DNA from: Deltaproteobacteria bacterium
GTDB lineage: Bacteria > Myxococcota > Myxococcia > SLRQ01
Assembly (NCBI GenBank): GCA_029210625.1
Contig: JARGFU010000001.1
Location: 133,806-197,805 of the forward strand
Direction: 5' to 3'
Length of the DNA: 64,000 nucleotides
Every line of letters begins with the position of its first letter. The first letter of the stretch is position 1. Below are positions 7,311 to 55,975 of this stretch, piece by piece. The notes below the pieces were generated by a model, which searched no databases, was not told the origin of the DNA, and saw only the letters and a program-made list of their open reading frames with translations. Made by a program: the position numbers and the translations under genes.

Positions 7311-8039
7311 TCAGCGCCGGCGCTGGGCCTCGCCGGTCATGGGCACGAAGCGCACCGGGGCGATGCTCCGGGAGGTGAAGCCCTCGGGGGTGCGGGTGAT
7401 CACCCGCAGGGACTGGAAGTGCTCCCCCACCGGGATGACCAGGCGCCCGCCCACCTTCAGCTGGGCCTTCAGGGGCTCGGGCACCTGCGGGGGCGCGGCG
7501 GTGACGACGATGGCGTCGAAGGGGGCCTTCTCGGGCCAGCCGGCGTAGCCGTCGCCGTGGCGGACGGTGACCGGGTAGCCCAGGGCCTTCAGCCGGGCGT
7601 CGGCCTCCTTCGCCAGGGCCTCGAGGATCTCGATGCTGTAGACCTCGGCCCCCATCCGGGCGAGGACCGCCGCCTGGTAGCCCGAGCCGGTGCCCACCTC
7701 CAGGACCCGGTCGCCTGGCTCGATCCCGGCCGCCTGGCTCATCAGGGCGACGATGTAGGGCTGGCTGATCGTCTGGCCGTGGCCGATGGGCAGGGGGTGG
7801 TCCGCGTGGGCCTCGGCCCGGTAGGCCGGCGGGACGAAGCGGTGCCGGGGGACCTCCCGCATCGCCACCAGCACCCTCGGATCGTCGATGCCCCGCTCCT
7901 CGATCTGGCTTCGGACCATGCTCGACCTCGCCGCGGCGGAGGCGTCCTTCTTCCCGGCCGGCTCACCTGAGGCGGCAGGAGAAGAGAGCAGCGCCACGAT
8001 CACGAGCGCCCGGCTGAACACGCCCCGCATGGGATCCAA
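7311..8039 (-). CDS. pcm: Protein-L-isoaspartate O-methyltransferase with an N-terminal signal peptide (exported form)
   Basis: Carries the PIMT motifs [24 protein letters not shown] and RLVIPVG. The N-terminus [22 protein letters not shown] is signal-like. Confidence 0.8.
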
Positions 8040-12345: not shown

Positions 12346-12496
12346 CCGGCTCTCTCCTCCAAGGCTCCAAATGGAGATTGATTCTCAACAGACAAGAGCC
12401 TGCGCCGGCCCCCGAGGATTCACCAGCCGGCATTTTCCCGGGTGGCCCTCGGGAAAATCTAGGGGGCGGAGGCCCGTGCTACCCTGGTTTGCGCAG

Positions 12497-15154: not shown

Positions 15155-15674
15155 CCTCGGGGAAGGAGACCCAGGCCCCGTCGATCACCAGCAGGAGCCC
15201 CAGCGCCTTGCCGATCCGCCACTCGAGCGAGCCGGCGAGGAGCGGGGAGACCGGGAAGCCCGCCGAGGAGCGGTCGTTGGGGTCGGTGGAGGCCGGCAGG
15301 CCCAGGAGCTCCCGGCTCGCCACCAGCGCGCCGATCCGCAGGCCCGCGCCCAGGGCCGGGCGAAGAGGCGCCCGATCGTCGAGGAAGCGATACATCCCCA
15401 CCACCGCGACGGCGGCCTGCGCCCAGCTCGCCTTCCCCTCCTCGATGCCGCGGGAGAGGCTCCCCTCGAGGCGCAGCGCCCAGGCCGGAGCGAGGCCGAG
15501 CTGGAAGCCCAGGTGCTGGACGACCCCCACGGCCGCCCCCCCGGGCCCCACGGCCTCCACCGGGCCGACCCCCAGCTCGACGCGCAGACCCCAGCCCAGG
15601 AGGCCGTCCTCGGCCCGGGCCTGCGTGGCGCCGAGCAGGCCGACCAGGGTCAGGAGGTGGAGAGCTCGCCTCAC
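15105..15674 (-). CDS. Small outer-membrane beta-barrel protein (OmpA-like barrel / OmpW-type)
   Basis: GTG start with signal peptide VRRALHLLTLVGLLGATQARA. Alternating beta-strand pattern and a C-terminal aromatic residue (…LALRF). It is the only protein-like part of the 484-aa track ORF. GTGA overlap with the upstream gene's stop. Confidence 0.5.
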   Translation of the reverse strand: MRRALHLLTLVGLLGATQARAEDGLLGWGLRVELGVGPVEAVGPGGAAVGVVQHLGFQLGLAPAWALRLEGSLSRGIEEGKASWAQAAVAVVGMYRFLDDRAPLRPALGAGLRIGALVASRELLGLPASTDPNDRSSAGFPVSPLLAGSLEWRIGKALGLLLVIDGAWVSFPEGAVWHLSERLVLALRF

Positions 15675-16483
15675 CTTCGCCGCTCTCGCTCGTGGGCCAG
15701 GCGGGTGAGGGCCACCTGCATGATGCTCTCGACCTGCCGGGCGCAGCGCTCGACGTAGGCCTCGTCCGCGGCGGCCTCCTCCCCCTGCCGATCGAAGTGG
15801 ATGGGCTCGAGGACCTCGATCAGGATCTTCGAGGGCCAGGGCAGGTAGAGGAGCTGCGGCCCCACGACCACGCCCCAGGGCAGGCAGAGGGTGATCGGCC
15901 AGACCTTCACCCGCAGCAGGCGGTCGGCCCGCAGCAGGCGCGCCAACCGGCGGCCGTCGGTGAGCACCCGGAAGGTGGCGTGCGCGCCCGCGGCCACCAC
16001 CGGCACCAGGGGCACACCCCCGCGCAGGGCCAGGCGGACGTAGCCGCGCCGGCCGCCGAAGACGATCCGATCCCGATCCCGGTAGGGGCGCATGGCCTCG
16101 TAGTCGCCGCCCGGGTAGACCAGCACCTTGTGGCCGGCCTCGAAGAGGCGCAGGCCGTTCTCGTGGCTCGCCCGCACCGCGCCCAGGGGGGCGGTGATCT
16201 CGTTGAGCACGGGCAGGGAGATCGCGAACTCGTGGCCGAGGCCGTAGGGCATCCCGGCCAGCCCCAGCTCGCGGTAGACGGCCGCCCCGAAGAGGAAGGC
16301 CTCGGGGATCATCAGGCCGCCGTTGTGGTTTCCCACGTAGAGGGCCGCCCCCGGGGGGATCCGCTCCAGGCCGCTGACCTCGGCCCGGTAGTAGGGCTCG
16401 AGCACCCCCTCCACGATCCGCACGAAGCGCTCGAGCCAGCGCTCGTCCCGGTTGTCCAGGCTGTCGATGTCGAAGCGGGGCAC
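15671..16483 (-). CDS. Lysophospholipid/glycerolipid acyltransferase family protein (PlsC superfamily)
   Basis: Protein-like from VPRFDIDSLDN onward. Carries VGNHNGG (HX4-like block) and VYPGGDYE (FPEGTR-like block). The upstream 170 aa of the track ORF is RGAP-rich and spans an AT-rich promoter patch, so it is judged non-coding. GTG start; exact start uncertain. Confidence 0.55.
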   Translation of the reverse strand: MPRFDIDSLDNRDERWLERFVRIVEGVLEPYYRAEVSGLERIPPGAALYVGNHNGGLMIPEAFLFGAAVYRELGLAGMPYGLGHEFAISLPVLNEITAPLGAVRASHENGLRLFEAGHKVLVYPGGDYEAMRPYRDRDRIVFGGRRGYVRLALRGGVPLVPVVAAGAHATFRVLTDGRRLARLLRADRLLRVKVWPITLCLPWGVVVGPQLLYLPWPSKILIEVLEPIHFDRQGEEAAADEAYVERCARQVESIMQVALTRLAHERERRR

Positions 16484-16675
16484 GGCAGCACACTCTCGGC
16501 GCAGAACGGGTGCCAGGTCCAGGGGGCGGCCCCGGGAACTCGTCAGGACCACCTGACATTCATGCAGGAATTTTACAACTACAATAGATTTGGGTCCGCT
16601 CCTGGCTGGAAGGAGCGGGATCGTCGACGGCGGGGCGCCGCCGACGGAAGAGACGTCAACATCAGGGGAACACAG

Positions 16676-16972
16676 ATGAAGAAGAACTGCTGGGAATCGA
16701 CCTCCTGTGGCAGGGAGCCGGGAGGCAAGAAGAGCTCGGAGCTGGGCGTCTGCCCGGCCGCGACCGAGAAGCGGACCGACGGGATCAACAGCGGCAAGAA
16801 CGGTGGGCGGGCCTGCTGGGCGGTCACCGGCACCCTCTGCGGCGGCCAGGTGCAGGGCTCCTACGCCATCAAGCTCTCCAACTGCATGGCCTGCGACTTC
16901 TACCAGCAGGTGAAGGCGGAAGAGGGGAGCGCCTACGTCTACTCCCGCAAGATCGTCGCTCAGCTGAGCTAG
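16676..16972 (+). CDS. Two-CW domain small cysteine-rich protein
   Basis: 98 aa with two Cys-Trp cores (NCWESTSCGREPGG…LGVCPAA and GGRACWAVTGTLCGG…NCMACDFY). Matches the 'two-CW' domain seen at sensor-kinase N-termini. RBS AGGGGA. AT-rich leader. Confidence 0.65.
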   Translation: MKKNCWESTSCGREPGGKKSSELGVCPAATEKRTDGINSGKNGGRACWAVTGTLCGGQVQGSYAIKLSNCMACDFYQQVKAEEGSAYVYSRKIVAQLS

Positions 16973-17040
16973 ACCGCGCCAAGGACCGGGCCTTTTGGGG
17001 TAGGGTGCCACGCGCCGTGAGCACCCACGAGATCAGCACC

Positions 17041-17574
17041 ATGAAGCGCGCCACCCTCCCCGGCCGCATCGCCGCCCTCTGGGGCGTGGCGGGGGTCGTG
17101 CTGCTCTGCACCAGCGCGATCGTTCGCCTGGCCCCCCTGGCCTGGGAGCCGATCCGGACGGGGGAGCTTCTCTGGTGGCACGGCCTCCTCTACGCCCTGA
17201 GCGTCGTCCTGATGGCCTACTCGGAGGGCTACAAGGGCTTCCAGAAGGCCTTCGCCCCCCGGGTGGTGAGCCGGGCGGCTCACCTCGCCCGCGACCCTCG
17301 CCTCCTCCACGCGCTGCTGGCCCCCTTCTTCTGCATGGCCCTCTTCCACGCCCCCCGCCGCCGGAAGATCGTCTCCTGGTCGATCACCACCGGGGTGATC
17401 CTCCTGATCGTGCTGGTGCGCCTGACCCCTCAGCCCTGGCGCGGCATCATCGACGCCGGGGTGGTGGTGGGCCTCGGCTGGGGCGTGGCGGCGATCCTCG
17501 CCTTCGCCCTGCGCACGCTGATGGGCGCACCGCCGCCGGCCGCGCCCGAGCTGCCCGAGCCGGCCGCTGGCTAG
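17041..17574 (+). CDS. Hypothetical 4-TM membrane protein
   Basis: MKRATLPGRIAALWGVAGVVLL… contains four hydrophobic helices. The track start at 17005 (GTG) is also possible. Confidence 0.4.
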   Translation: MKRATLPGRIAALWGVAGVVLLCTSAIVRLAPLAWEPIRTGELLWWHGLLYALSVVLMAYSEGYKGFQKAFAPRVVSRAAHLARDPRLLHALLAPFFCMALFHAPRRRKIVSWSITTGVILLIVLVRLTPQPWRGIIDAGVVVGLGWGVAAILAFALRTLMGAPPPAAPELPEPAAG

Positions 17575-17576
17575 AA

Positions 17577-18656
17577 TCAGGTGGTGAAGTTGACCGCCCG
17601 CTCCAGGTCGCTGGGGTTGGTGGCCGCCTCCTTGGCGACATCCAGGGTGACCTTCCCCTGGGAGAGCAGCTCCGCCAGGTGCTGATCGAAGGACTGGGTG
17701 CCGAGCAGGCCCCGGTTCTTCTCCAGGTAGTCCTTGATCTCGCCGGTGCGCTCCTCGTCCCGGATGAACTCCTGGATCGAGCGGGTGGTGAGCATCACCT
17801 CGCAGGCCACCACCCGGCCCGACCCCTGGGCCGGCGGTAGCAGGCGCTGGGAGACGGTCGACTTGAGGGCGTCGGCCAGCCGGGCGCGCACGCCGTGATG
17901 GGCCTCGGGGGGATAGGCCCCGAGCAGGCGGTTGATGGTGCGGACCGCGTCCTGGGTGTGCACCGTGGAGAGGACCAGGTGGCCGGTCTCGGCGGCCTTC
18001 AGCGCGATCTCGATGGTCTCGATGTCGCGCATCTCACCGAGCATGATCACGTCGGGGTCCTGGCGCAGCGAGGCCTTGAGCGCCGCCGCGAAGGAGGGCG
18101 TGTCGGGGCCGATCTCCCGCTGGGTCACCCGGGAGAGCTTGTCCTCGTGGAAGAACTCGATGGGGTCCTCGATGGTGAGGACGTGCTTGCGCTCGTGGGC
18201 GTTGATGTAGCCCACGATGGCCGCCAGGGTGCTGGACTTGCCCGAGCCGGTGACGCCGGTGACCAGCACCAGGCCCCGCTCGGTCTGGGCCACCTTCTCG
18301 AGCACCGCCGGGAGGTTGAGGCTGGCGAAGCTCGGGACGTCGTAGGGGATGGCCCGCAGGATGATCCCGAGGTTGCCCTCGCTCCGGAAGATGCTGGCCC
18401 GGAAGCGCGCCACCCCCGGCAGGGCGTAGGAGGCGTCGTGCTCGGTGAGCTCCTCGAGGCTGCCCTTGTAGCGGGAGCGGCTCAGGATGTGCCCGGCGAC
18501 CCGCTGGGTGTCCTCGGCCGAGAGGGCGGGGACCTTCACGGCGAGGAGCTCTCCGTTCACTCGCAGCGCGGGCGACGCGCCGACCTTGAAGTGGATGTCC
18601 GACGCGCCGGTGTTCACCGAGGCGCCCAGGAAGCGGTTGAAACTCTCGAGCTCCAT
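17577..18656 (-). CDS. pilT: Type IV pilus retraction ATPase PilT
   Basis: Walker A GVTGSGKST and the PilT motifs TIEDPIEF and LGEMRD. At 359 aa the length is typical. Confidence 0.9.
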   Translation of the reverse strand: MELESFNRFLGASVNTGASDIHFKVGASPALRVNGELLAVKVPALSAEDTQRVAGHILSRSRYKGSLEELTEHDASYALPGVARFRASIFRSEGNLGIILRAIPYDVPSFASLNLPAVLEKVAQTERGLVLVTGVTGSGKSSTLAAIVGYINAHERKHVLTIEDPIEFFHEDKLSRVTQREIGPDTPSFAAALKASLRQDPDVIMLGEMRDIETIEIALKAAETGHLVLSTVHTQDAVRTINRLLGAYPPEAHHGVRARLADALKSTVSQRLLPPAQGSGRVVACEVMLTTRSIQEFIRDEERTGEIKDYLEKNRGLLGTQSFDQHLAELLSQGKVTLDVAKEAATNPSDLERAVNFTT

Positions 18657-18672
18657 CGTGCTCTCCTCTCGC

Positions 18673-19170
18673 CTAGCGCATCCCGAGCTCGAAGGCCTTC
18701 GCGGCCGTGAGCTCGTCGTTGGTCTTCCGCAGCCGCTCGGCGAGCGTCTGGCAGAAGCCCCGGTAGATCTTCCGGGCCAGGGTGTCGTCCGCGGCCAGCA
18801 CCTTCTCGAAGGCGTCCCGCTCCATCACCAGCAGGCGGGCGTCCCTCGTCACCCGCACCCGGGCGCTGGTGAGCATGTCGTCGACCAGGGCCATCTCGCC
18901 GAAGATCTGCCCGGGGCCGAGGCGGCCGAGCTCCTCGTCGTCGCCGTCCCCGTCGGTGTCCTCGCCGCGGGTGACCAGGACCTCGCCCTCGATGATCACG
19001 TAGAGGGCATCCCCCAGGGCGCCCCGCTCGATCACGACCTCCCCGGCGGGCACGTCGCGGTGCGCGGCGATCTCCCCCAGGCGGGTGGTCTCGTCGAAGT
19101 TCAGCTGCGAGAAGATGCGGAGCTTCTGGAGCAGCTCCACCCCCTCCACCTCACCGAGTGCATTGTCCAC
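18673..19170 (-). CDS. Cyclic nucleotide-binding (cNMP/CAP effector) domain protein
   Basis: Carries FGEMALV…RSARV phosphate-binding-cassette-like motifs. Sits immediately upstream of pilT on the same strand. Confidence 0.7.
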   Translation of the reverse strand: MDNALGEVEGVELLQKLRIFSQLNFDETTRLGEIAAHRDVPAGEVVIERGALGDALYVIIEGEVLVTRGEDTDGDGDDEELGRLGPGQIFGEMALVDDMLTSARVRVTRDARLLVMERDAFEKVLAADDTLARKIYRGFCQTLAERLRKTNDELTAAKAFELGMR

Positions 19171-42348: not shown

Positions 42349-45300
42349 TCAGCCCAGCGCCTCGGCCACGGCCCGGAGCAGATCCTCGCTGCGGACCGGC
42401 TTGGCCAGCAGCTTGAACTCCTGGCGGAGGAGGCCGGGATCCAGCTCGCGAGGCAGATACCCGGAGCAGACGACGATGGGGCGCCCCGGGTAGCGCTCCC
42501 GGAAGTCCGCCACCAGCCGGTGGCTCGGATAGCCGGGCATCACCCCGTCGGTGAAGAGGAGATCGATGTCGGCGTGGAGCTCCACCAGGCGCCGCGCCTC
42601 GTCCCCGTCGGCGGCCTGGAGGACCTCGAAGCCCGCTTCCTGGAGGATCGCGCAGAAGACGCTGCGGACCAGCTCGTGATCCTCGGCGACCAGCACCTTC
42701 CCCCGGCGCTCCCCCGAGCTGGGCGCCGGCGCCCGCGCGGGGCTGCCCGGCGCGCTCTGGAGCGGCCAGCGGACCTCGAAGCGGGTGCCCTCCCCCGGTG
42801 CGCTCTGCACCGAGAGGCTCCCCCCGCTGCGATCGATCAGGTGCCGGACCGCGGCGAGGCCGAGGCCGGTGCCCCGCCCCTTCTCCTTGGTGGTGAAGAA
42901 GGGCTCGAAGGCCTGCTCGAGGGTCCGGGCGTCCATCCCCACGCCGTCGTCGGCGACCACCAGGGTCACGCGCTCCGCGTCCCGCGAGGTCCGGACCGTG
43001 AGCCGCCCTCCCGCCGGCATGGCGTGGATCGCGTTCTGGGTGAGGTTGAAGACGATCCGGTTGAGATCCCGCACCTGGGAGAGGACGTGGCAGCCCGGCG
43101 CGAGCTCGAAGTCGAGCTCGATCGAGCGGGGGGCGCGCCGCTCGACCAGCCGCAGCGCGCGCTGGAGCGTGGACGAGAGCTCCACGACCTCGTCGGCCCC
43201 CGTCACGATGTCCGAGTCGGTCGTGAACTGCTCGACCAGGGTCTCCGCGTAGTCCGCCGCCATCTCGAGATCCAGGACAGCCCGGCGGCGGCCCGCCTCG
43301 TCGAGCATCTCGAAGCGCTCCAGGATCCAGGTGCTGGAGACGAGGGTCTGGATGGCGTTGTTGAAGTCGTGCACGACCGCCCCGGCCAGCTGACCCATGT
43401 CCTCGATCCGGGCGGTCCGGGCCTCCATCTGCTGCAGCCGCTCGACCTTCTCGCCCTCCTCCTCCCGGAGGGCCTGCGCGGCCTCGAGATCGGCGATGGC
43501 GTGGGTCATGTCCTCGATGGTGCGCTGGGCTCCCCGGAAGACCCCGAAGGTCAGCACGCCGCTGCAGGTGAAGGCGGTCCCCAGCATGAAGGCGACCCTG
43601 AACCAGTTGCGGGCGTGGACCGGCGAGAAGTCCTCCAGCGGCACCGACAAGATCCCCTGCTGGTGCAGGAGGCCGCCGGCGAGGAAGAGGAGGGCGAAGA
43701 GGGCCAGGAGCGAGACGATCATCCACCGGCGGCTGAAGACCGCCGCCAGGGCGGCCACCAGGCTCAGGAGCGCCACCGAGATCGCGGAGAGGAAGCTGTT
43801 GAACACCAGGAGCGGCGCGGCGACGCAGAGGATGCTCGCGTAGAGCAGCCCGTTGCGTACTCCCCGGCCGAGCCCCGGCACCCAGCCGCCGATGGCCCCG
43901 AGGATCGCGGCGCCCGCCACGCCGAAGAGCGAGCGCAGCAGCACCGCCCGATCGAACTGGATGAAGGGATAGGGGGCCAGCGCGACGAAGTAGAGCACCG
44001 TGAAGACCCGCAGCATCTTCTGGACGAGCCGGTGGGACCAGTCGTCCAGATCCTCGGGCGCGGCGGGGGCCACCGGCCCGGGGAGCGGCGCGGGGGTGGC
44101 CTCGGCAGGAGCGGCGCCGATCGACGGCCCTCGCGAGACGACCGCGGCCGGGGTGGGGATCCCGGCGAGGGGGGCGGGCTCCCGGGCGGGCGCCTCGCTC
44201 GCCTCCAGATCCGGGAAGAGAGCCCGGACCCTCGTGCCCTCTCCCACCTCGCTCTCGATGGCGAGGGTGCCGCCGAAGGCCTCGACCAGCCCGATGGCGG
44301 TCGAGAGCCCCAGCCCCGAGTGCTTCTCGGGGCTCCGGGTCGTGAAGAAGGGCTCGACCGCCCGGCGCCTCACCTCCTCCTCCATCCCCTCTCCCGTGTC
44401 TCGCACCGAGACCTCCACGTAGCGCCCGGGAGGGATGGGGGTGATGGCATCGAGGGGCGTCTCCGCGAGCTCCCGGCGCTGGACCCGCACCTCGATCGTG
44501 CCGCCCGCCTCCACGGCGTCGGAGGCGTTGAGCACCAGGGAGAGGAGGACCTGCCGCAGCCCCTCGGGGCTGAGCTCGGCGAGGCAGCCCTCGTCCGCGG
44601 AGATGGTCACCCGGACGTCCTCCCGCAGGGCGCTGATCAGCCCCTCGCGGTGGCCGAGGACCTCCGCCCCCACGTCCACCCGCTTCGGCTCGACCGGGTC
44701 GCGACGGCTGAAGGCCGTCAGGTCCGAGAGCAGGGTGACGCCCTGCTCCGTGATCTGCTGGATCCGCCGGGCGAGGCGCTGCGCCGCCTCCGGCGTCGCC
44801 TCGGCGCGCAGCTCGTCCACGGCGAAGCGCACGACCGTGAGGATGTTGTTGAAGTGATGGGCGAGGCCGTGGGCGAGGTGCCGGATGGCCTGGGAGCGGT
44901 AGCTGTCCCGCAGCTCGTCCTCCCGCGCGGCCCGCTCGCTCCGCAACGCCTCCGATCGCATCGTCTCCGCGGCCGTCTCCTCGAGGAGCTCCCGGGTCGA
45001 GGCATGGAGGCGGCGCATGCTCGTCATCGCGAAGCGGAGCATCGCGACCATCACCGAGGTGATCAGCAGGAAGAGGGTCCCCGAGCGCAGCCAGTGATCC
45101 AGCACCGTGGGGTCGATCGCCCGGCCGTCGATGTCGAGGACCCCGGCCCGGATCAGCGCGCCCCCCGCCAGGAAGGCCGCCGTGATCCCGGCGGCCACGA
45201 CGTAGAACGCCCGCCGTCCGAGGAGCAGCACGGCGAGGGAGACCAGGAGGAAGCTCGTCGCCGTGTTCACCGGGGTCCAGCCCAGCTGGAGGATGAAGAC

Positions 45301-45564
45301 CACGAGGGCGAGCGCGAGGCTGCTGACCAGGTACCAGCTCCGCAGCCGCTGGGTGACCCCGGGAGCCCGCAGGAGCAGCACCCCGAGGAGGCCGACCCCG
45401 AAGGCGATCCCGACCGAGGGGAGATAGGTGCGCGGCAGCCAGAAGACGGCGACGAGGGGGATGAGGACGAGGCCGCCGACCACCAGGCGATAGGCGGTGC
45501 GAGAGAGCCGCAGCTGCCAGTCGCGCAGGTCGCTCGCGCCGGTGGCTCCCTCCAGCCCGACCAT
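42349..45564 (-). CDS. Hybrid sensor histidine kinase/response regulator with two tandem TM-sensor + HisKA/HATPase modules and a C-terminal receiver
   Basis: Two H-boxes (HGLAHHFNNIL, VVHDFNNAIQTL) and two G-boxes (GLGLSTAIGL, GTGLGLAAV). Two blocks of 5-6 TM helices. C-terminal REC (VLVAEDHELV…DLLFTDGVMPG). Confidence 0.85.
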   Translation of the reverse strand: MVGLEGATGASDLRDWQLRLSRTAYRLVVGGLVLIPLVAVFWLPRTYLPSVGIAFGVGLLGVLLLRAPGVTQRLRSWYLVSSLALALVVFILQLGWTPVNTATSFLLVSLAVLLLGRRAFYVVAAGITAAFLAGGALIRAGVLDIDGRAIDPTVLDHWLRSGTLFLLITSVMVAMLRFAMTSMRRLHASTRELLEETAAETMRSEALRSERAAREDELRDSYRSQAIRHLAHGLAHHFNNILTVVRFAVDELRAEATPEAAQRLARRIQQITEQGVTLLSDLTAFSRRDPVEPKRVDVGAEVLGHREGLISALREDVRVTISADEGCLAELSPEGLRQVLLSLVLNASDAVEAGGTIEVRVQRRELAETPLDAITPIPPGRYVEVSVRDTGEGMEEEVRRRAVEPFFTTRSPEKHSGLGLSTAIGLVEAFGGTLAIESEVGEGTRVRALFPDLEASEAPAREPAPLAGIPTPAAVVSRGPSIGAAPAEATPAPLPGPVAPAAPEDLDDWSHRLVQKMLRVFTVLYFVALAPYPFIQFDRAVLLRSLFGVAGAAILGAIGGWVPGLGRGVRNGLLYASILCVAAPLLVFNSFLSAISVALLSLVAALAAVFSRRWMIVSLLALFALLFLAGGLLHQQGILSVPLEDFSPVHARNWFRVAFMLGTAFTCSGVLTFGVFRGAQRTIEDMTHAIADLEAAQALREEEGEKVERLQQMEARTARIEDMGQLAGAVVHDFNNAIQTLVSSTWILERFEMLDEAGRRRAVLDLEMAADYAETLVEQFTTDSDIVTGADEVVELSSTLQRALRLVERRAPRSIELDFELAPGCHVLSQVRDLNRIVFNLTQNAIHAMPAGGRLTVRTSRDAERVTLVVADDGVGMDARTLEQAFEPFFTTKEKGRGTGLGLAAVRHLIDRSGGSLSVQSAPGEGTRFEVRWPLQSAPGSPARAPAPSSGERRGKVLVAEDHELVRSVFCAILQEAGFEVLQAADGDEARRLVELHADIDLLFTDGVMPGYPSHRLVADFRERYPGRPIVVCSGYLPRELDPGLLRQEFKLLAKPVRSEDLLRAVAEALG

Positions 45565-45806
45565 CAGTGCCCCCAGACCTCGTCGATGAAGAGCTCGAGG
45601 CCCCCGAAGAAGACCTGGCCGATCAGGACGACCAGCCCGAGGAGCGCCAGCAGGAGGATCCCGCTGACCACGACGCAGCCGGCGGTGCCGATCCCGAGGC
45701 CGAGGAAGAACTGGCGGGGCGTCTCTCCGGGGTGGATCCCGGCGGCCGCGAGCTCCTCCCCCGAGAGGGCCTCGACCTCGTCGGGAGGGCGTGGCGAATC
45801 GGTCAT
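45564..45806 (-). CDS. Small (80 aa) membrane protein translationally coupled to the hybrid kinase
   Basis: AGGAG RBS. One or two TM helices. Its stop overlaps the kinase start (ATGA). It starts 11 nt after the TonB-dependent receptor stop. Confidence 0.45.
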   Translation of the reverse strand: MTDSPRPPDEVEALSGEELAAAGIHPGETPRQFFLGLGIGTAGCVVVSGILLLALLGLVVLIGQVFFGGLELFIDEVWGH

Positions 45807-45817
45807 CAGGAGATCTC

Positions 45818-48040
45818 CTAGAAGCGGCTGCGCAGGTAGCCCTGGAGGCGGGGCAGGATGGGGTGGCCGTAGTAGTTGCTGCCGTCCTCGAGGTACTCGC
45901 CCGAGGTCTCCCGCATCTCCAGGCCGAGGATCGGGGTGTGACCCTGGAGGCCGGCCTCCCACTCGGTCCCGCCGAGCCCGAAGGCCCAGCCCGCCCGGGC
46001 GAAGACCAGGGTGTTCGCCGCCAGCGGGGTGTTGCGGTTCGGCGAGAGGATGGAGTCGGGGGAGACGTGCCCCCCCCAGAAGCCCGAGGTCCAGAAGGCG
46101 AAGGCGGAGAGGCGCAGACCCTCGCCCCCGTAGCGGGCCCCGAGGATCAGGTGGTGGGTGGGCTCCCGCTTGTTCCTCCGCTGCTCCACCTCGCCGCCCG
46201 GCAGCTCCACCCGCTCGTAGACCTGATCGAGCCCGTAGGCGAGGTCGAGCTCGAGCCCCTCGATCGGCAGGCGCCAGGACGCGGCGATCTCCGCGCCCGC
46301 CGACCAGCTCTTGCTCGGGAAGGACTCGAAGACGAGCTTCACCTCGTCCCCGATGATCGGCAGCCCGGCGAAGTACTGGACGTCCCAGAGGGAGGAGGCG
46401 TCGAGTTCGATCTCGTCCCGGTAGCGGGAGAGATAGAGCTCGACCTCCACCCGGAGCTTCTCCTGGAGGAAGCGGCCCCGCCAGCCGAGCTCGGCGATGT
46501 CGACCTTGGTGTTGACCAGCTCCTCGCCGCCGAGGCCGGTCGCGAAGATGTGCTGGATGCGCCGGAAGAGATCCTGGTCCTGCAGGGTGCCGGGCTCGAG
46601 GAGGAGGTGGCCCTTCTGCTCGAAGAAGGAGGGCTGCCGGTAGGCGCGCGCCACCGAGGCCCGCACCGTGTGGTGCTCCATCGGCCGGTAGACGGCGGTC
46701 AGGCGGGGAGAGAAGCCGGGCTCGGGGACCAGGGTGTTGTAGCCCGCCCGGACCCCGGCGTTCAGCTCGAGCGACGAGGCGACCCGCCACTCGAGCTGGG
46801 TGAAGCCCTCGACGCGGCCCTCGAAGAGCACGCTCGGCTCGCAGGCGGCCGGATCGAAGGCCGTCGGGGCGCTCTCGGGGCAGGTGACGAACGATCCCTC
46901 GCCGTGGTGGACGAGCCGGGTCGAGAGCCCGGTGAGGAGGCGCAGGTCGTCCGAGAGCTTCCAGATGCGCTCGGCGTCGGCCACGTAGGCCCGGGTGGGG
47001 TGGAAGACGGGCTGGGGGAGCTGCGCCATCACCATCGACGGGTCGTTCGGCATGCGCAGGTTCAGGTCGAGGGTCAGCTCGGTGTCGAGGAGATCGAAGA
47101 AGAAGCGCAGCCGCCAGTCGTGGACGATGGCGTCGGCCCGCACGTAGAGGTGCTCGTAGTAGCCGTCCCCGTTCCCGGCGAAGGTCACGATGTCGCCGCG
47201 CTCGGCGCCGCCGCCGACCTCGAGGGTCGCCTCGACCTCGTCGCCCTCGTAGCGCAGCCAGTTCCGGCTCCGGAAGAACCAGGCCCCCACCCGCCCGGGC
47301 TCGTGGAAGGGCGACCGGCGGTCGTAGCCCCAGGAGCTCCACCAGCTGAAGCGGCCCCTCGTCCCCGAGGCCTTCAGGTTGCCGGAGAGGGTCTCGGGGC
47401 GGTAGCCGGAGAGCTCGGCCTCGACCGTCAGCAGGCCCTTCTCGGCCCGGCGGGTGACGATGTTCACCACGCCCTGCAGGGCGTTCGCCCCGTAGAGGGT
47501 GGAGGCCGGGCCCCGGATGACCTCGATCCGCTCGATGGAGGCCAGGTCGACCGGCATCGCCAGCCAGAGGGGCAGCTGGAAGATCGGCAGGAGCACGTCG
47601 CGCCCGTCCACCAGCACCAGGATGTTCGAGCCCTCGTTGCTCGAGCCCGAGCGGGAGCCACTGGAGGGGAACGCGATCGTCAGGAGCCAGACGTCCATCC
47701 CCGGCACCGTGCGCAGGACGTCCGCGACGTTGTCGAAGGGCATCAGGCGCAGGTCTTCCCGGGTGATGACCGTGATCGCCGAGGGCGAGTCGTCGATCCG
47801 CTGGGCGCGGCGCGAGGCCGAGACGACGATGTCCTCCTGCACCAGCAGGGCGAACTCGTCGCTGATGTCGAGATCCTCGAGGGACTCGAAGTCGAAGGCC
47901 GCCTCGAGGGCCGCCTCGTCGATCAGCGCCTCCTCGGGGACGCCCTCCTCGGCGGCGCGCACCTCACCGGGCGCCACCGCACAGCAGAGCACGGCAAGCA
48001 GTCCCCCCACTCGAATTCGACCCACACGCTCGAGTGACAT
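45818..48040 (-). CDS. TonB-dependent outer-membrane receptor
   Basis: Signal peptide MSLERVGRIRVGGLLAVLCCAVAPGEVRA. Plug motifs (DSPSAITVITRED, IEVIRGPASTLYG). Terminal Phe on the barrel. The upstream 730 aa of the track ORF are rejected. Confidence 0.8.
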   Translation of the reverse strand: MSLERVGRIRVGGLLAVLCCAVAPGEVRAAEEGVPEEALIDEAALEAAFDFESLEDLDISDEFALLVQEDIVVSASRRAQRIDDSPSAITVITREDLRLMPFDNVADVLRTVPGMDVWLLTIAFPSSGSRSGSSNEGSNILVLVDGRDVLLPIFQLPLWLAMPVDLASIERIEVIRGPASTLYGANALQGVVNIVTRRAEKGLLTVEAELSGYRPETLSGNLKASGTRGRFSWWSSWGYDRRSPFHEPGRVGAWFFRSRNWLRYEGDEVEATLEVGGGAERGDIVTFAGNGDGYYEHLYVRADAIVHDWRLRFFFDLLDTELTLDLNLRMPNDPSMVMAQLPQPVFHPTRAYVADAERIWKLSDDLRLLTGLSTRLVHHGEGSFVTCPESAPTAFDPAACEPSVLFEGRVEGFTQLEWRVASSLELNAGVRAGYNTLVPEPGFSPRLTAVYRPMEHHTVRASVARAYRQPSFFEQKGHLLLEPGTLQDQDLFRRIQHIFATGLGGEELVNTKVDIAELGWRGRFLQEKLRVEVELYLSRYRDEIELDASSLWDVQYFAGLPIIGDEVKLVFESFPSKSWSAGAEIAASWRLPIEGLELDLAYGLDQVYERVELPGGEVEQRRNKREPTHHLILGARYGGEGLRLSAFAFWTSGFWGGHVSPDSILSPNRNTPLAANTLVFARAGWAFGLGGTEWEAGLQGHTPILGLEMRETSGEYLEDGSNYYGHPILPRLQGYLRSRF

Positions 48041-52255: not shown

Positions 52256-55200
52256 TCAGACGAGCGCGGAGAGGTAGTCGGCGCGCAGGCCCTCGTCGCG
52301 CAGGACGTCGTAGGCGTCGTCGAGGCCGCGGCGGATCTCCTCGAGCTTGCCCCAGAGATCCTGGTAGATGACGTCGGCGTAGCGGGCCGGCTGCATCTCC
52401 CGGGAGAGGCGCTCGTAGGCCTCCTTGATCTCGTAGGCGGTGGCGTCGCGGGTGACGCCGAGGATCTCGAAGTAGTCGGCGTCCAGCGCCTGGCGGAACT
52501 TCTCCTCGATGCGGGTGCGGTCGATCACCGCCTGGCTCTGCGCCTCCTCGGGAGTCGAGGCCCGGCCCTCGGGCATGGCGCCGCGCACGCGCACGGAGAC
52601 CTGACCAGTCGACTCGAGGACGTAGAGCACCTGGTAGGTGGGCTCCTCGCCGAGCCCCGAGAGGAAGACCAGCTCCTCGGCGGAGTGGAGCCCATCGACG
52701 CTGGTGGCCACCCGCCGCTCGCGGGCCGAGAAGCCGAAGACCTGCCAGTCGCCCGCGGTCTCGGTGGGAGCGAGCACGGTGGCCGGCCCGCCGAGGCAGC
52801 GGTGGATGCGATCGAGGGTGTACTTGCGGCGGATGCCCTCGGCGACGAGCGCGAAGGGATGATCGGGCAGGGCCACCCGGGCGTCCTCCGGGCAGACGGC
52901 CTGGATCCAGCGCCAGCGCCCCTCCTCCTCGGAGAAGGCCCCGAAGAGCGCCGCCTGGGCCTGGGCCCGGACCGTGTCGTAGAGCTCCTGGGCCTTGAGC
53001 TGCCCGGCCTCGACCAGGGCGACGGCCGCCTGGCGGGGGAGCAGATCGCCCTCGGCCCGGATCTGCCGCGCCTGCTGGCGGGTGATCCGGCCCAGGCGGC
53101 AGGCGACCTCCTCCAGGCGCTCCGCCGCCGAGGTGGAGCTGGCGCCCACGACCCGGCCGAGCTCGACGAAGACGGCGCGGTTCACCGCGGCGCCGTGGAT
53201 CTCCAGCACGCCGGTGGCCCGGGCCCGGTAGAGGTCGGCCAGGAGCCGCGGCAGATCCCGCTCGAGGAGATCGCCCTCCTCGGGGAAGGGCGCGCCGGTG
53301 GGGTTCGGCTGGATGTCCTGGGGCGCCGGCGAGTGCGGCGCGGGCGCCGGCGGCGGCGCGGGGTTGCGGGGCGGGAGGGGCTGCGGCATGGGCGGCGGCT
53401 CCACGGGAGGCGGCGGCGGGGGCGCGGCCTGCTGCACCGGCGCCGGGGCGACGGGCGCGGGCGCCATCGCGGGGGCGGCGAGGCCTCCGTAGGAGGGTGC
53501 CGGCGGAGGCGGAGGTGGGGGCGGCTGCTCGGCGATGATCGGCGCCGGGGGCGGCGGCGGTACGGCGATGATCGGCGCGGGAGGCGGTGGAGGTGGCGGG
53601 GCAGGCGTCGGGGGCTCGTAGCCCCCCCAGGTGGGCGCGGCCAGGGCCTCGGGGTCGAGCCCCTCGGCACCCTCCACCACCCCCTCCTCCGTGGCGGTCT
53701 CGGCGGCACCCCAGCCTGCGGCGGCGCTGGCCTCGATCTCGGGTCCGCCCCCGAAGGGATCGAGGAGCATCGAGCCCTCTTCGACCTCGGCCGGCGGGGC
53801 CGGGATCGGAGGCTCGGGCTCCGGGTCGGGCGCATCGAGATCGATCGCCAGCCGGCTGCTGCGCTCGACGGGCTCTCCCTGCAGGGACTCCAGCTCGTAG
53901 GTGGTCGGACCGCCGGCGCCCCAGCCCGAGGCCCGGGTCGGCGCAACCTCGCGCTCGAAGGAGGTCCACCCTCCCTCGACCACCGCCGAGCGAGCGGGCC
54001 GTGGCGCCGGAGCAGGTGCGGGGGCGGGCGCCGGGGGCTCGGGCTCGGGCGGCGTGGCCGCCACCTCGATGGGCCCGGCGCCGGGTTCGTCCGGGAGCGC
54101 CTCGTCCTCGAGCATCGACTCGAGGTCCTCGAGATCCTCGTCGCGCTCGGCCTCCTGCTGGGCCCGGCGCTCGGCCTCGGCCTGGGCAGCCCGCTCGGCC
54201 TCGGCCTCGGCCAGGCGGCGGGCCTCCTCGCGGGCCTTCTCCTTCGCGGCGCGCTTGGCCGCCTTGCGGGCAGCCTCCTCCGCCTCGGCCTTGCGGCGCA
54301 GCTCCTCCGCCTCACGGCGGGCTTCCTCCGCGGCCAGGCGGGCAGCCTCCTCGGCCGCGAGCCGCGCCGCCTCGGCCTCGGCCTCCCGGCGCGCTGCCTC
54401 CTCGGCCGCCTGACGCTCCGCCTCCTCGGCCGCGAGCCGCGCTGCCTCCTCGGCCGCCTGACGCTCCGCTTCCTCGGCCGCCTTCTGCGCTGCCGCCTCT
54501 TCGGCCGCGAGCCGCGCTGCCTCTTCCTCGGCCGCCTGACGCTCTGCCTCCTCGGCCGCGAGCCGCGCCGCCTCTTCCTCGGCCGCCCTCTGCGCTGCCG
54601 CCTCTTCGGCCGCGAGCCGCGCCGCCTCTTCCTCGGCCGCCTGACGCTCTGCCGCCTCTTCGGCCGCGAGCCGCGCTGCCTCTTCCTCGGCCGCCTGACG
54701 CTCTGCCTCCTCGGCCGCGAGCCGCGCCGCCTCTTCCTCGGCCGCCTTCTGCGCTGCCTCCTCGGCGGCCTTGCGGGCCTCCTCCTCGAGGGCCCGCGCC
54801 CTGGCGTCCTCCTCCTCCCGGCGCTTGCGCGCGGCCGCGACCTTCTTCTTGGCCTCCGCCGCGGCGCGCTGCTTCATCGCCTCGGCCCGGCGCTTCGCCT
54901 CGGCCTCGGCCCGCTCCTTCACCAGGGCCTCTTCCTCTTCCGGGCTGGCGGCCTCGGCGCCGGCGGCGATCTCCCGGGCGGCCCGCTCCAGGTCGGCGGT
55001 GCGCTGGCGCTCGAGGGCGTCGGCCACCTCTCCCGCCGAGGCCGCGGTGACGGCGTCGTCGTCGGAGCCGGCCTCGGCGTCGCCCATCATCTCGGAGCCG
55101 ATGTCACCGAAGAGCTCGTCGGCCAGCTCCCCGGAGCGGCCCGGCTCGGTGACCTCCCAGGCGCCGGTGAAGCCCCGCTCCTCCTCCTCGGGGGCCGGGG

Positions 55201-55855
55201 CCCCACCCCCGGCGGCCGCGAAGGCCTCCTCGGCCCCCGTCGCGGTGAGGGCCTGGGCGCCAGGATCGGTGAGCGGCTCGTGCTCGTCCTCGTCGAGGGG
55301 CGAGGCCATGAAGGAGACCGAGGCCCCGGGGTCGGTGGCGCCGTCGTCCATCGCGGGGACCGGCGGCGGCGCCGCGGGAAGCCCGCTGATCGCGGCCAGG
55401 AACTCGGAGGCCTCCTCGTCGCTGGGACCGGGGAGGTCGGGGAGGTCGGGGACGGCGGTCACCGCGGTCTGCTCGCGGTCGCGGTCCATCCCCAGGTAGG
55501 CGTCGACCTTGGCGGCCACTTCGGCCCAGGGCACGGGCCGCCGGAAGAAGCCGTCGCCGCCGTTGGCCAGCGCCGAGGCCGCGTCGGTGACCTCGCCCTG
55601 GCCGTCGCCGATCATCAGCACCGGCAGCATCGGATCCTTGGCCTGCTGCCGGATCGTCTTGCAGATCTCCAGGCCCGAGTGCTCGTCGGTGGAGAGCGAG
55701 AGGATCACCAGCGCGGGATCGTCGTGCTCGATCACGACCTCGGCGTCCGCCGCGTTCGAGGCGACGACCGGCTCGTAGCCACCCTCCTTGAGGATTCGCC
55801 GGGCCGCGGAGACGGACGCGATGTCGTCGTCGATGACGAGGATGCGCTTGGGCAT
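52256..55855 (-). CDS. Multi-domain protein: pseudo-receiver (REC lacking the phospho-Asp), acidic region, E/A-rich 17-aa tandem coiled-coil repeats, Pro-rich region, DUF4388 (PATAN-like) domain, and a J-like domain lacking the HPD motif
   Basis: The N-terminal CheY-like fold (ILVIDDD…) has Ser where the phospho-acceptor Asp is expected (ALVILSLS). About 10 AAEEEAARLAAEEAERQ units. A PPPPPAP-rich tract. DUF4388 core GDLLERDLPRLLADLYRARATGVLEI…RAVFVELGRVV. C-terminal DYFEILGVTRDATAYEIKEAYERLSREMQPARY (J domain with HPD replaced by QPA). Confidence 0.8.
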   Translation of the reverse strand: MPKRILVIDDDIASVSAARRILKEGGYEPVVASNAADAEVVIEHDDPALVILSLSTDEHSGLEICKTIRQQAKDPMLPVLMIGDGQGEVTDAASALANGGDGFFRRPVPWAEVAAKVDAYLGMDRDREQTAVTAVPDLPDLPGPSDEEASEFLAAISGLPAAPPPVPAMDDGATDPGASVSFMASPLDEDEHEPLTDPGAQALTATGAEEAFAAAGGGAPAPEEEERGFTGAWEVTEPGRSGELADELFGDIGSEMMGDAEAGSDDDAVTAASAGEVADALERQRTADLERAAREIAAGAEAASPEEEEALVKERAEAEAKRRAEAMKQRAAAEAKKKVAAARKRREEEDARARALEEEARKAAEEAAQKAAEEEAARLAAEEAERQAAEEEAARLAAEEAAERQAAEEEAARLAAEEAAAQRAAEEEAARLAAEEAERQAAEEEAARLAAEEAAAQKAAEEAERQAAEEAARLAAEEAERQAAEEAARREAEAEAARLAAEEAARLAAEEARREAEELRRKAEAEEAARKAAKRAAKEKAREEARRLAEAEAERAAQAEAERRAQQEAERDEDLEDLESMLEDEALPDEPGAGPIEVAATPPEPEPPAPAPAPAPAPRPARSAVVEGGWTSFEREVAPTRASGWGAGGPTTYELESLQGEPVERSSRLAIDLDAPDPEPEPPIPAPPAEVEEGSMLLDPFGGGPEIEASAAAGWGAAETATEEGVVEGAEGLDPEALAAPTWGGYEPPTPAPPPPPPPAPIIAVPPPPPAPIIAEQPPPPPPPPAPSYGGLAAPAMAPAPVAPAPVQQAAPPPPPPVEPPPMPQPLPPRNPAPPPAPAPHSPAPQDIQPNPTGAPFPEEGDLLERDLPRLLADLYRARATGVLEIHGAAVNRAVFVELGRVVGASSTSAAERLEEVACRLGRITRQQARQIRAEGDLLPRQAAVALVEAGQLKAQELYDTVRAQAQAALFGAFSEEEGRWRWIQAVCPEDARVALPDHPFALVAEGIRRKYTLDRIHRCLGGPATVLAPTETAGDWQVFGFSARERRVATSVDGLHSAEELVFLSGLGEEPTYQVLYVLESTGQVSVRVRGAMPEGRASTPEEAQSQAVIDRTRIEEKFRQALDADYFEILGVTRDATAYEIKEAYERLSREMQPARYADVIYQDLWGKLEEIRRGLDDAYDVLRDEGLRADYLSALV
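54431..54770. repeat. Tandem 51/54-nt direct repeats (about 6 units) encoding the AAEEEAARLAAEEAERQ coiled-coil repeat
   Basis: The unit cgcgagccgcgc[c/t]gcctcttcctcggccgcctgacgctctgcc… recurs at 54431, 54506, 54557, 54611, 54665 and 54716. Confidence 0.8.
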
Positions 55856-55933
55856 GAAGAGTTCGAGGGCAGGCGAGGAAGGAGGCCTGGCAGGTCGCTC
55901 GACTCTAGCACCGGCTCCCGGATCGGATCCAAG

Positions 55934-55975
55934 AAGCGGCCGCCAAAGAGCCCGACTTTCGGCCGCTTAGCCGCG
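55934..55975 (-). terminator. Possible intrinsic terminator or hairpin downstream of priA
   Basis: On the minus-strand RNA, AAGCGGCCGAAAG…CUUUGGCGGCCGCUU forms a roughly 13-bp imperfect stem followed by a CUUCUUGG run. The U-tract is weak. Confidence 0.25.

Follow-up and report, generated by a model that had tools for sequence, protein, structure and literature searches.

Zinc in CZB domains is held by three histidines and one cysteine within a helical bundle, and these domains sense oxidants. CZB stands for chemoreceptor zinc-binding domain, and H. pylori TlpD and E. coli DgcZ are examples (PMC6715182, PMC8262984). The two-CW proteins, one of which is the subject of this study, have a layout like that of CZB. 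Each is a small metal-thiolate module of the cytoplasm, the metal being a presumed one in the two-CW case, and both occur at the C-terminus of chemoreceptors, in GGDEF proteins and as separate proteins. The likeness ends there, since our two-CW protein gives neither a sequence match to CZB (Pfam, E up to 1) nor a fold match, and has no histidine and seven cysteines; it is not a member of the CZB family.

WhiB-like (Wbl) proteins, which are confined to Actinobacteria and their phages, carry a [4Fe-4S] cluster on four cysteines. Like the two-CW protein they are free-standing, measure ~80–120 aa, keep invariant cysteines for a cofactor and act via a partner protein instead of an effector domain of their own, although cofactor and partner are putative for two-CW. 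Wbl differs in having four cysteines in another pattern, and the two-CW protein gives no profile match to it. A further comparison is offered by the CCG domain of HdrB/SdhE, CXnCCGXmCXXC, two copies of which hold unusual [4Fe-4S] clusters (PMC2754724). Both families have a duplicated cysteine-rich motif with a Cys-Gly pair, but the two-CW motif reads C-W-x4/6-C-G-x13-C, Pfam CCG is not matched at E up to 1, and CCG resides in redox enzymes while two-CW resides in signalling proteins. The eukaryotic zf-CW zinc finger also has conserved Cys and Trp. It shares with two-CW only the name and these residues, and our protein is not a zf-CW member; nor does it show the hallmarks of a 4Fe-4S ferredoxin, be it the CxxCxxCxxxCP motif, the Fer4 profile or the fold. 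The one described family from which it shows no sequence difference is NCBIfam NF045718 (two_CW_domain): it has the two CW dipeptides and the full set of seven family cysteines.

The gene lies in a stretch of 64 kb that is called the window below. Its coding sequence and ribosome-binding site are:

16676..16972, plus strand: coding sequence of the two-CW protein (open reading frame and translation, NF045718 match, third-position GC 0.94)
16664..16669, plus strand: Shine-Dalgarno-like AGGGGA, 6 nt 5' of the ATG (from sequence)

The gene model is secure and the gene is real because of the third-codon-position GC of 0.94, the Shine-Dalgarno sequence and a start that is common to the homologues. 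The frame opens with ATG at 16676 and closes with a TAG stop at 16970–16972 after 98 codons; homologue starts coincide with this ATG, 1–5 residues before N-C-W, and a GGAGG-like ribosome-binding site stands at the equivalent place in most of 84 family loci. Just upstream of the ATG, third-position GC in the same frame is 0.70, yet the frame is open over 1.6 kb. The 98-aa product starts MKKNCWESTSCGRE and also reads MKKNCWESTSCGREPGG...GGRACWAVTGTLCGG...NCMACDFY. An antisense ORF (16579..16833, minus strand) overlaps the gene, and an antisense ORF of at least 80 aa does likewise in 52 other loci. It is the sense frame that carries the invariant Cys and Trp and the high third-position GC, and we therefore read the antisense ORF as a shadow of conserved coding sequence.

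A preliminary description of this DNA, made from its letters, had proposed a 98-aa product with two Cys-Trp cores, assigned it to the two-CW family and presented its free-standing state as a departure from the family's habit. The cores are present (C5-W6 and C47-W48), and the family call holds because the NF045718 match scores 113.7 bits (cut-off 35, E 3.7e-33), with residues 3–81 aligned to profile positions 1–79 of 80, whereas no Pfam model matches the protein at E up to 1. By every sequence criterion the protein belongs to NF045718, as a typical rather than an unusual member. It does stand alone here, but not as an exception: 119 of the closest 120 protein clusters at 90% identity are at most 130 aa long (median length 99 aa). 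When 1.84 billion cluster representatives were searched with a profile, at least 1865 clusters were recovered (at 50% identity, E up to 0.001), and 100 of the best 150 representatives are no longer than 170 aa. Similarly, a scan of one genome per species found two-CW relatives at at least 569 loci, each in the genome of a different species, and among the best 80 of these about 76 are genes for about 100 aa, in stop-to-stop frames of roughly 100–170 codons. The free-standing form is the rule in this family, and although histidine kinases lead the list of fusion partners, they are not the setting in which two-CW is most often found.

The hosts of the best 80 loci span more than 20 bacterial phyla plus Methanomicrobiales, mostly at 55–70% identity; besides these archaea they include Nitrospirota, Desulfobacterota, Acidobacteriota, Planctomycetota, Bacteroidota, Ignavibacteriota, Spirochaetota, Armatimonadota, Omnitrophota, Chloroflexota, Bacillota and a cyanobacterium, among others. 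Median identity over the 80-residue core is 63%, and the lowest value is 49%. Among genomic sequences our protein has its nearest relative in an archaeon, Methanoregula (75%), ahead of an Anaeromyxobacteraceae sequence. In NCBI an identical protein is listed as hypothetical protein P1V51_00690 of a Deltaproteobacteria MAG, and the next-best protein is 71% identical. The window's gene is an ordinary member of a family with a curated profile, already deposited as hypothetical. Plasmid and phage collections held no two-CW homologue, so there is no sign of an origin on mobile elements. We found no published study of the 'two-CW domain', either under this name or among work on cysteine-rich sensor kinases and Fe-S clusters; CheWS (PMC10653840), which we considered, is unrelated to the family. 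Membership in NF045718 consequently gives the protein a name, not a function.

Some relatives deserve separate mention. Two homologues of 99–102 aa (P0004 and P0046) are labelled 'SurE nucleotidase' by JGI, presumably a mis-annotation; a G-I-N-x-G-x-N-x-G stretch, which we take to resemble a SurE loop, is perhaps where the label came from. Two-CW genes stand in tandem in one locus (L077, 4565–4813 and 5001–5291), and two further proteins (P0121, P0122) contain two two-CW domains each; with such tandem copies the working unit may be a dimer. Within the window, a paralogue search returned the two-CW gene itself only. A weak match at 7769–7879 was dismissed as noise, being in the wrong reading frame relative to the 242-aa ORF (7311..8039, minus strand) that spans it.

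An alignment of 39 sequences has 24 invariant columns, among them 7 Cys, 2 Trp and 2 Arg: N4, C5, W6, C11, G12, R13, G17, G24, C26, G40, G44 and R45 in the first part, and C47, W48, G52, T53, C55, G57, Q60, G61, K66, C70, C73 and F75 in the second. The invariant cysteines are accordingly C5, C11, C26, C47, C55, C70 and C73, with C70-x2-C73 forming a CxxC; a nearly invariant Pro directly follows C26. In 45 longer, fused relatives six of the seven cysteines are invariant and the seventh is kept in at least 90%. Histidine is absent from the 98-aa protein, and no conserved His occurs in the family. The sequence can be read as two half-motifs, C-W-x4/6-C-G-x13-C, plus the extra cysteine of the CxxC, and C11..C26 and C55..C70 have the same 15-residue spacing. 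This suggests an internal duplication, although the alignment of the two halves to each other by hhalign is not significant (P 0.058, probability <1%).

An AlphaFold2 model built from the family alignment (pLDDT 85.4, pTM 0.76) is compact and mostly helical, with little regular secondary structure in the first half and the C55 loop as its sole low-confidence segment. No fold relative of the model was found among solved structures. The protein is thus predicted to form one compact domain, with a fold that would be new to the solved structures.

In the 45 relatives longer than ~190 aa, the partners are HATPase_c (13), HisKA (8), PAS (8), REC (6), Pkinase (4), MCPsignal (3), cNMP-binding (3), GGDEF (2), STAS (2), GAF (2) and PP2C. 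Example architectures are two-CW-PAS-HisKA-HATPase, two-CW-HisKA-HATPase-REC and two-CW-cNMP-Pkinase on the one hand, and PAS-HisKA_2-HATPase-two-CW, NIT-MCPsignal-two-CW and HAMP-MCPsignal-two-CW on the other. In all fused proteins examined the two-CW domain is terminal and on the cytoplasmic side; in kinases it forms the very N-terminal end, in chemoreceptors the very C-terminal one. Such a layout is that of an input or sensory module.

We lean, somewhat beyond an even balance, towards the two-CW protein being a cytoplasmic metal-thiolate sensor module, likely of the Fe-S type, that acts in trans. The seven thiolates would hold a metal centre, most likely one or two Fe-S clusters, with zinc as the alternative. 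What the domain would sense is redox state or a small reactive ligand, and it would pass this information on to signalling proteins. In the fused relatives the receivers would be the attached histidine or Ser/Thr kinases, chemoreceptors and GGDEF enzymes, reached in cis; the free-standing form, as here, would act in trans by binding a kinase or chemoreceptor partner. The fusions to signal-output domains and the terminal placement speak for the sensor role. It speaks against a metal sensor that none of the standard motifs for a single cluster accommodates seven cysteines, and that the protein matches no profile of a ferredoxin, rubredoxin or zinc finger (Pfam, E up to 1).

As to the metal itself, we give Fe-S clusters about an even chance and regard zinc as distinctly less probable. 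Fe-S is favoured because of the lack of His, the Cys-Pro pair, the CxxC, the mostly anoxic hosts and the C55 loop, which is disordered in the apo model. Zinc could also be purely structural, folding a small protein-binding adaptor that senses nothing. The protein's small size, its many cysteines and the little regular secondary structure in its first half would suit such an adaptor, as would its use as a terminal add-on across many architectures; furthermore, some hosts are apparent aerobes or oxygenic phototrophs (Terriglobales, a Xenococcaceae cyanobacterium), for which an oxygen-labile cluster would be a liability. We nevertheless consider a structural adaptor unlikely: its partners are almost all signal-output domains and two-CW occupies the place where input domains usually sit, invariant Trp and Arg beside the cysteines together with the lack of His are atypical of structural zinc sites, and neither a zinc-finger profile nor a zinc-finger fold is matched.

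Clustering of all ORFs within 5 kb of the gene in 84 loci revealed no conserved neighbour, and no family recurs in more than 7 loci. This result also concerns a quite different idea, namely that a short, cysteine-rich, stand-alone gene might encode the precursor of a ribosomally made, cysteine-modified peptide. We give this idea almost no credence, since no conserved maturase, radical-SAM or transporter gene adjoins the two-CW gene (within 5 kb, 84 loci), conservation extends over the whole length with no division into leader and core, the model is confidently globular, and cytoplasmic signalling proteins contain this very domain in fused form.

In individual loci, genes of potential interest were noticed by eye. 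Rrf2-like ORFs are divergent from the two-CW gene, 160–208 nt off, in two loci (L011, 4308–4793, and L019, 4395–4841, both on the minus strand), and IscU-like and cysteine-synthesis-like ORFs lie ~4–4.5 kb upstream in three (L011, L019, L027). Such neighbourhoods hint, if weakly, at a connection with Fe-S or cysteine metabolism.

They can also be cited, as an apparent Rrf2/IscU/cysteine-synthesis operon beside the gene in L011, L019 and L027, for a small ferredoxin-type electron carrier rather than a sensor. Seven cysteines recall 7Fe ferredoxins, a Cys-Pro pair is present, and most hosts come from anoxic habitats. Yet neither Fer4 nor any other ferredoxin profile is matched at E up to 1, no ferredoxin fold was recovered for the model, no oxidoreductase gene is a conserved neighbour, and two-CW is fused to kinases and chemoreceptors instead of redox enzymes; a role as electron carrier is, in our view, quite improbable.

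We return to the sensor acting in trans, for which, in part of the family, the missing conserved neighbour, adjoining chemoreceptor genes and sigma-28-type promoters can all be adduced. The commonest neighbour is indeed a chemoreceptor gene (MCPsignal), found on the same strand and 49–487 nt off in 5 loci from five lineages, including Methanospirillum:

L021, 5343–7670, same strand as the two-CW gene: chemoreceptor gene
L034, 5368–7389, same strand as the two-CW gene: chemoreceptor gene
L077, 5778–7547, same strand as the two-CW gene: chemoreceptor gene
L085, 483–1688, same strand as the two-CW gene: chemoreceptor gene
L070, 2822–4867, same strand as the two-CW gene: chemoreceptor gene

CheW and CheR genes lie near the two-CW gene in L070, L083 and L038. 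In addition, a sigma-28/FliA-type sequence, T[AG]A[AT]-N15/16-[GT]CCGATA, precedes the start in 7 of 84 loci, where 0.145 would be expected from the remainder of the same loci. The E. coli sigma-28 consensus is TAAAGTTT-N11-GCCGATAA (PMC2859248). The boxes stand 57–84 nt before the start codon (L011, L026, L035, L038, L044, L046, L056) in at least four phyla, with Acidobacteriota (4 loci), Nitrospiraceae, Neomarinimicrobiota and Oscillospiraceae represented; the four Acidobacteriota matches among the seven may share descent. This relaxed pattern was shaped after the data had been seen, and the retest used patterns fixed beforehand: TAAA-N14-16-GCCGATAW has 3 upstream matches against 0 in 1.46 Mb of background, and GCCGATA alone occurs 7 times against 1.35 expected (P 5e-4). 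Other loci have sigma-70-like (8) or sigma-54-like (2–3) boxes at similar distances from the start. Altogether, free-standing two-CW genes usually appear to have their own promoter and a short leader, and part of the family, only ~12–15 of the 84 loci, seems to be tied to motility and chemotaxis.

One may go further and propose, though with considerable doubt, that two-CW is a new metal-thiolate, probably Fe-S, sensor of redox state or small molecules with a fold of its own. Its free form of ~100 residues, which keeps ~63% identity in hosts that range from methanogens to Acidobacteria, would serve as a diffusible input module that docks on chemoreceptor arrays or kinases and belongs, in flagellated hosts, to the sigma-28 motility regulon. 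The new leads are the association with sigma-28 promoters and chemoreceptor genes and the missing fold relative among solved structures. The family is noteworthy for its size (at least 1865 clusters), for an unusually tight conservation over two domains of life and for its recurrent fusions to signal output, and we regard it as a well-defined 'known unknown' that is worth experimental work. Were its cofactor and ligand identified, the known repertoire of cytoplasmic input domains would gain a widespread member, and a class of signals for redox or energy taxis might find an explanation as well.

The gene in the window itself has none of these chemotaxis signals: no sigma-28 motif occurs in the entire 64 kb, and no che or chemoreceptor gene is near the two-CW gene. 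Its immediate neighbours are:

15671..16483, minus strand: divergent acyltransferase gene, PlsC/DAGAT-like (Pfam Acyltransferase and DAGAT matches)
17041..17574, plus strand: downstream gene for a 177-aa hydrophobic protein (open reading frame, third-position GC 0.96)

The acyltransferase frame is part of a 446-aa ORF (15671..17011, minus strand) that runs on across the intergenic region, and the preliminary description had supposed that this ORF is not coding over the AT-rich patch found there. Two observations concur: the Pfam Acyltransferase and DAGAT matches begin at residue 210 of the ORF, and third-position GC on the minus strand is 0.97 for 15674–16483 as opposed to 0.56 for 16484–17011. 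The acyltransferase thus probably starts with the GTG at 16483, and the remainder of the ORF up to 17011 is a non-coding shadow. On the other side, the gene for the hydrophobic protein begins 68 nt after the two-CW stop with no terminator detected between the two, and may be co-transcribed with the two-CW gene; its product matches no Pfam or NCBIfam model and is not found beside two-CW genes in other loci. Convergent with both is a pair of genes at 17577..19170 (minus strand), namely a gene for a PilT/PilU pilus-retraction ATPase (TIGR01420, 413 bits) and, preceding it, one for a stand-alone cNMP-binding protein. In two proteins elsewhere (P0221, P0123), two-CW is fused to a cNMP-binding domain and a Ser/Thr kinase; the presence of a cNMP-binding gene in the window may be a coincidence.

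The divergent acyltransferase and two-CW genes leave a spacer of ~192 nt, which contains the following:

16556..16595, no strand assigned: AT-rich patch (lowest GC in the 64-kb window, divergent intergenic)
16580..16585, plus strand: TACAAT, a -10-like hexamer (5/6 match to the -10 consensus)
16596..16618, plus strand: hairpin CCGCTCCT-N7-AGGAGCGG (8 bp, 7-nt loop) in the putative leader
16625..16646, plus strand: second GC-rich hairpin, imperfect (arms of 9 nt with 89% complementarity, loop of 4 nt)

Since its start lies 192 nt from the divergent acyltransferase, the two-CW gene is probably transcribed from a promoter of its own. The likeliest place for it is the AT-rich patch, a probable promoter region for one or both flanking genes; in a 72% GC genome, a divergent spacer of this kind is where one would look for promoters. 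GC falls to 0.27 in the 30 nt from 16562, compared with a window mean of 0.722, and the patch has the lowest GC of the 64 kb at the 20-, 30-, 40- and 60-nt scales; this dip, like the family match of the protein, exceeds chance. Its earlier portrayal as the only AT-rich patch in 20 kb goes slightly too far, as a weaker dip exists at 12368 (GC 0.37 over 30 nt). The -10-like TACAAT is found where it had been placed, at 16580–16585, but no -35 accompanies it: the hexamers 16–18 nt away match TTGACA at 0–2 of 6 positions. CTGACA at 16553–58 is 21 nt from TACAAT and 15 nt from a neighbouring TACAAC, and a consensus promoter scan of 15500–18000 returned 0 promoters. TACAAT as a specific sigma-70 promoter is not supported by these data; a promoter here is plausible, if unproven. 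We also discarded by eye a sigma-54 reading of the leader stretch TGGCTGGAAGGAGC, in which the spacing is not that of GG-N10-GC. Just 5' of the patch lies a perfect 6-bp palindrome, GTCAGG-ACCA-CCTGAC (16542..16557), which could be a regulator site and is short enough to occur by chance.

A hairpin in the leader had been pointed out as well, and TACAAT followed by a 5' hairpin might be read as a specific regulatory leader that controls stability or translation. The patch, being intergenic and the most AT-rich of the window, would be a suitable site; a start ~7 nt past TACAAT would put the hairpin at the 5' end of a leader of ~85 nt, a length that resembles the promoter-to-ATG distances at other family loci. 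The hairpin does exist, with 8 bp and a 7-nt loop, but as a feature it is noise at chance level: the window holds 41 perfect 8-bp hairpins with 3–10-nt loops, as against 34 ± 7 in first-order Markov simulations. The leader fold has a z-score of only -1.2 to -1.6, and folding of the leaders at 83 family loci gave a mean z of -0.06, which is no more structure than expected. Alignment by eye of the 110 nt upstream of 84 family genes revealed no common leader sequence, and a search of Rfam (E up to 1) matched nothing in the vicinity of the two-CW gene, either here or at three homologous loci. Given, in addition, the missing properly spaced -35 and promoter call, and 83 family loci without a common leader sequence or structure, we consider a regulatory leader of this kind quite improbable. 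The second hairpin (16625..16646) appears in the minimum-free-energy fold.

Signalling proteins were sought among the window's ten largest frames, where two were seen: a large hybrid histidine kinase with two HATPase_c stretches and REC (42352..46146, minus strand), and a REC-DUF4388-DnaJ protein (52259..55966, minus strand). Neither has an evident link to the two-CW gene, and the nearest histidine kinase found is 26 kb away from it. Elsewhere in the window, a 782-aa frame (30660..33005, plus strand) matches Pfam MVP_shoulder (E 6e-31) together with a vault repeat, and its predicted product seems to be a bacterial homologue of the major vault protein of eukaryotes.
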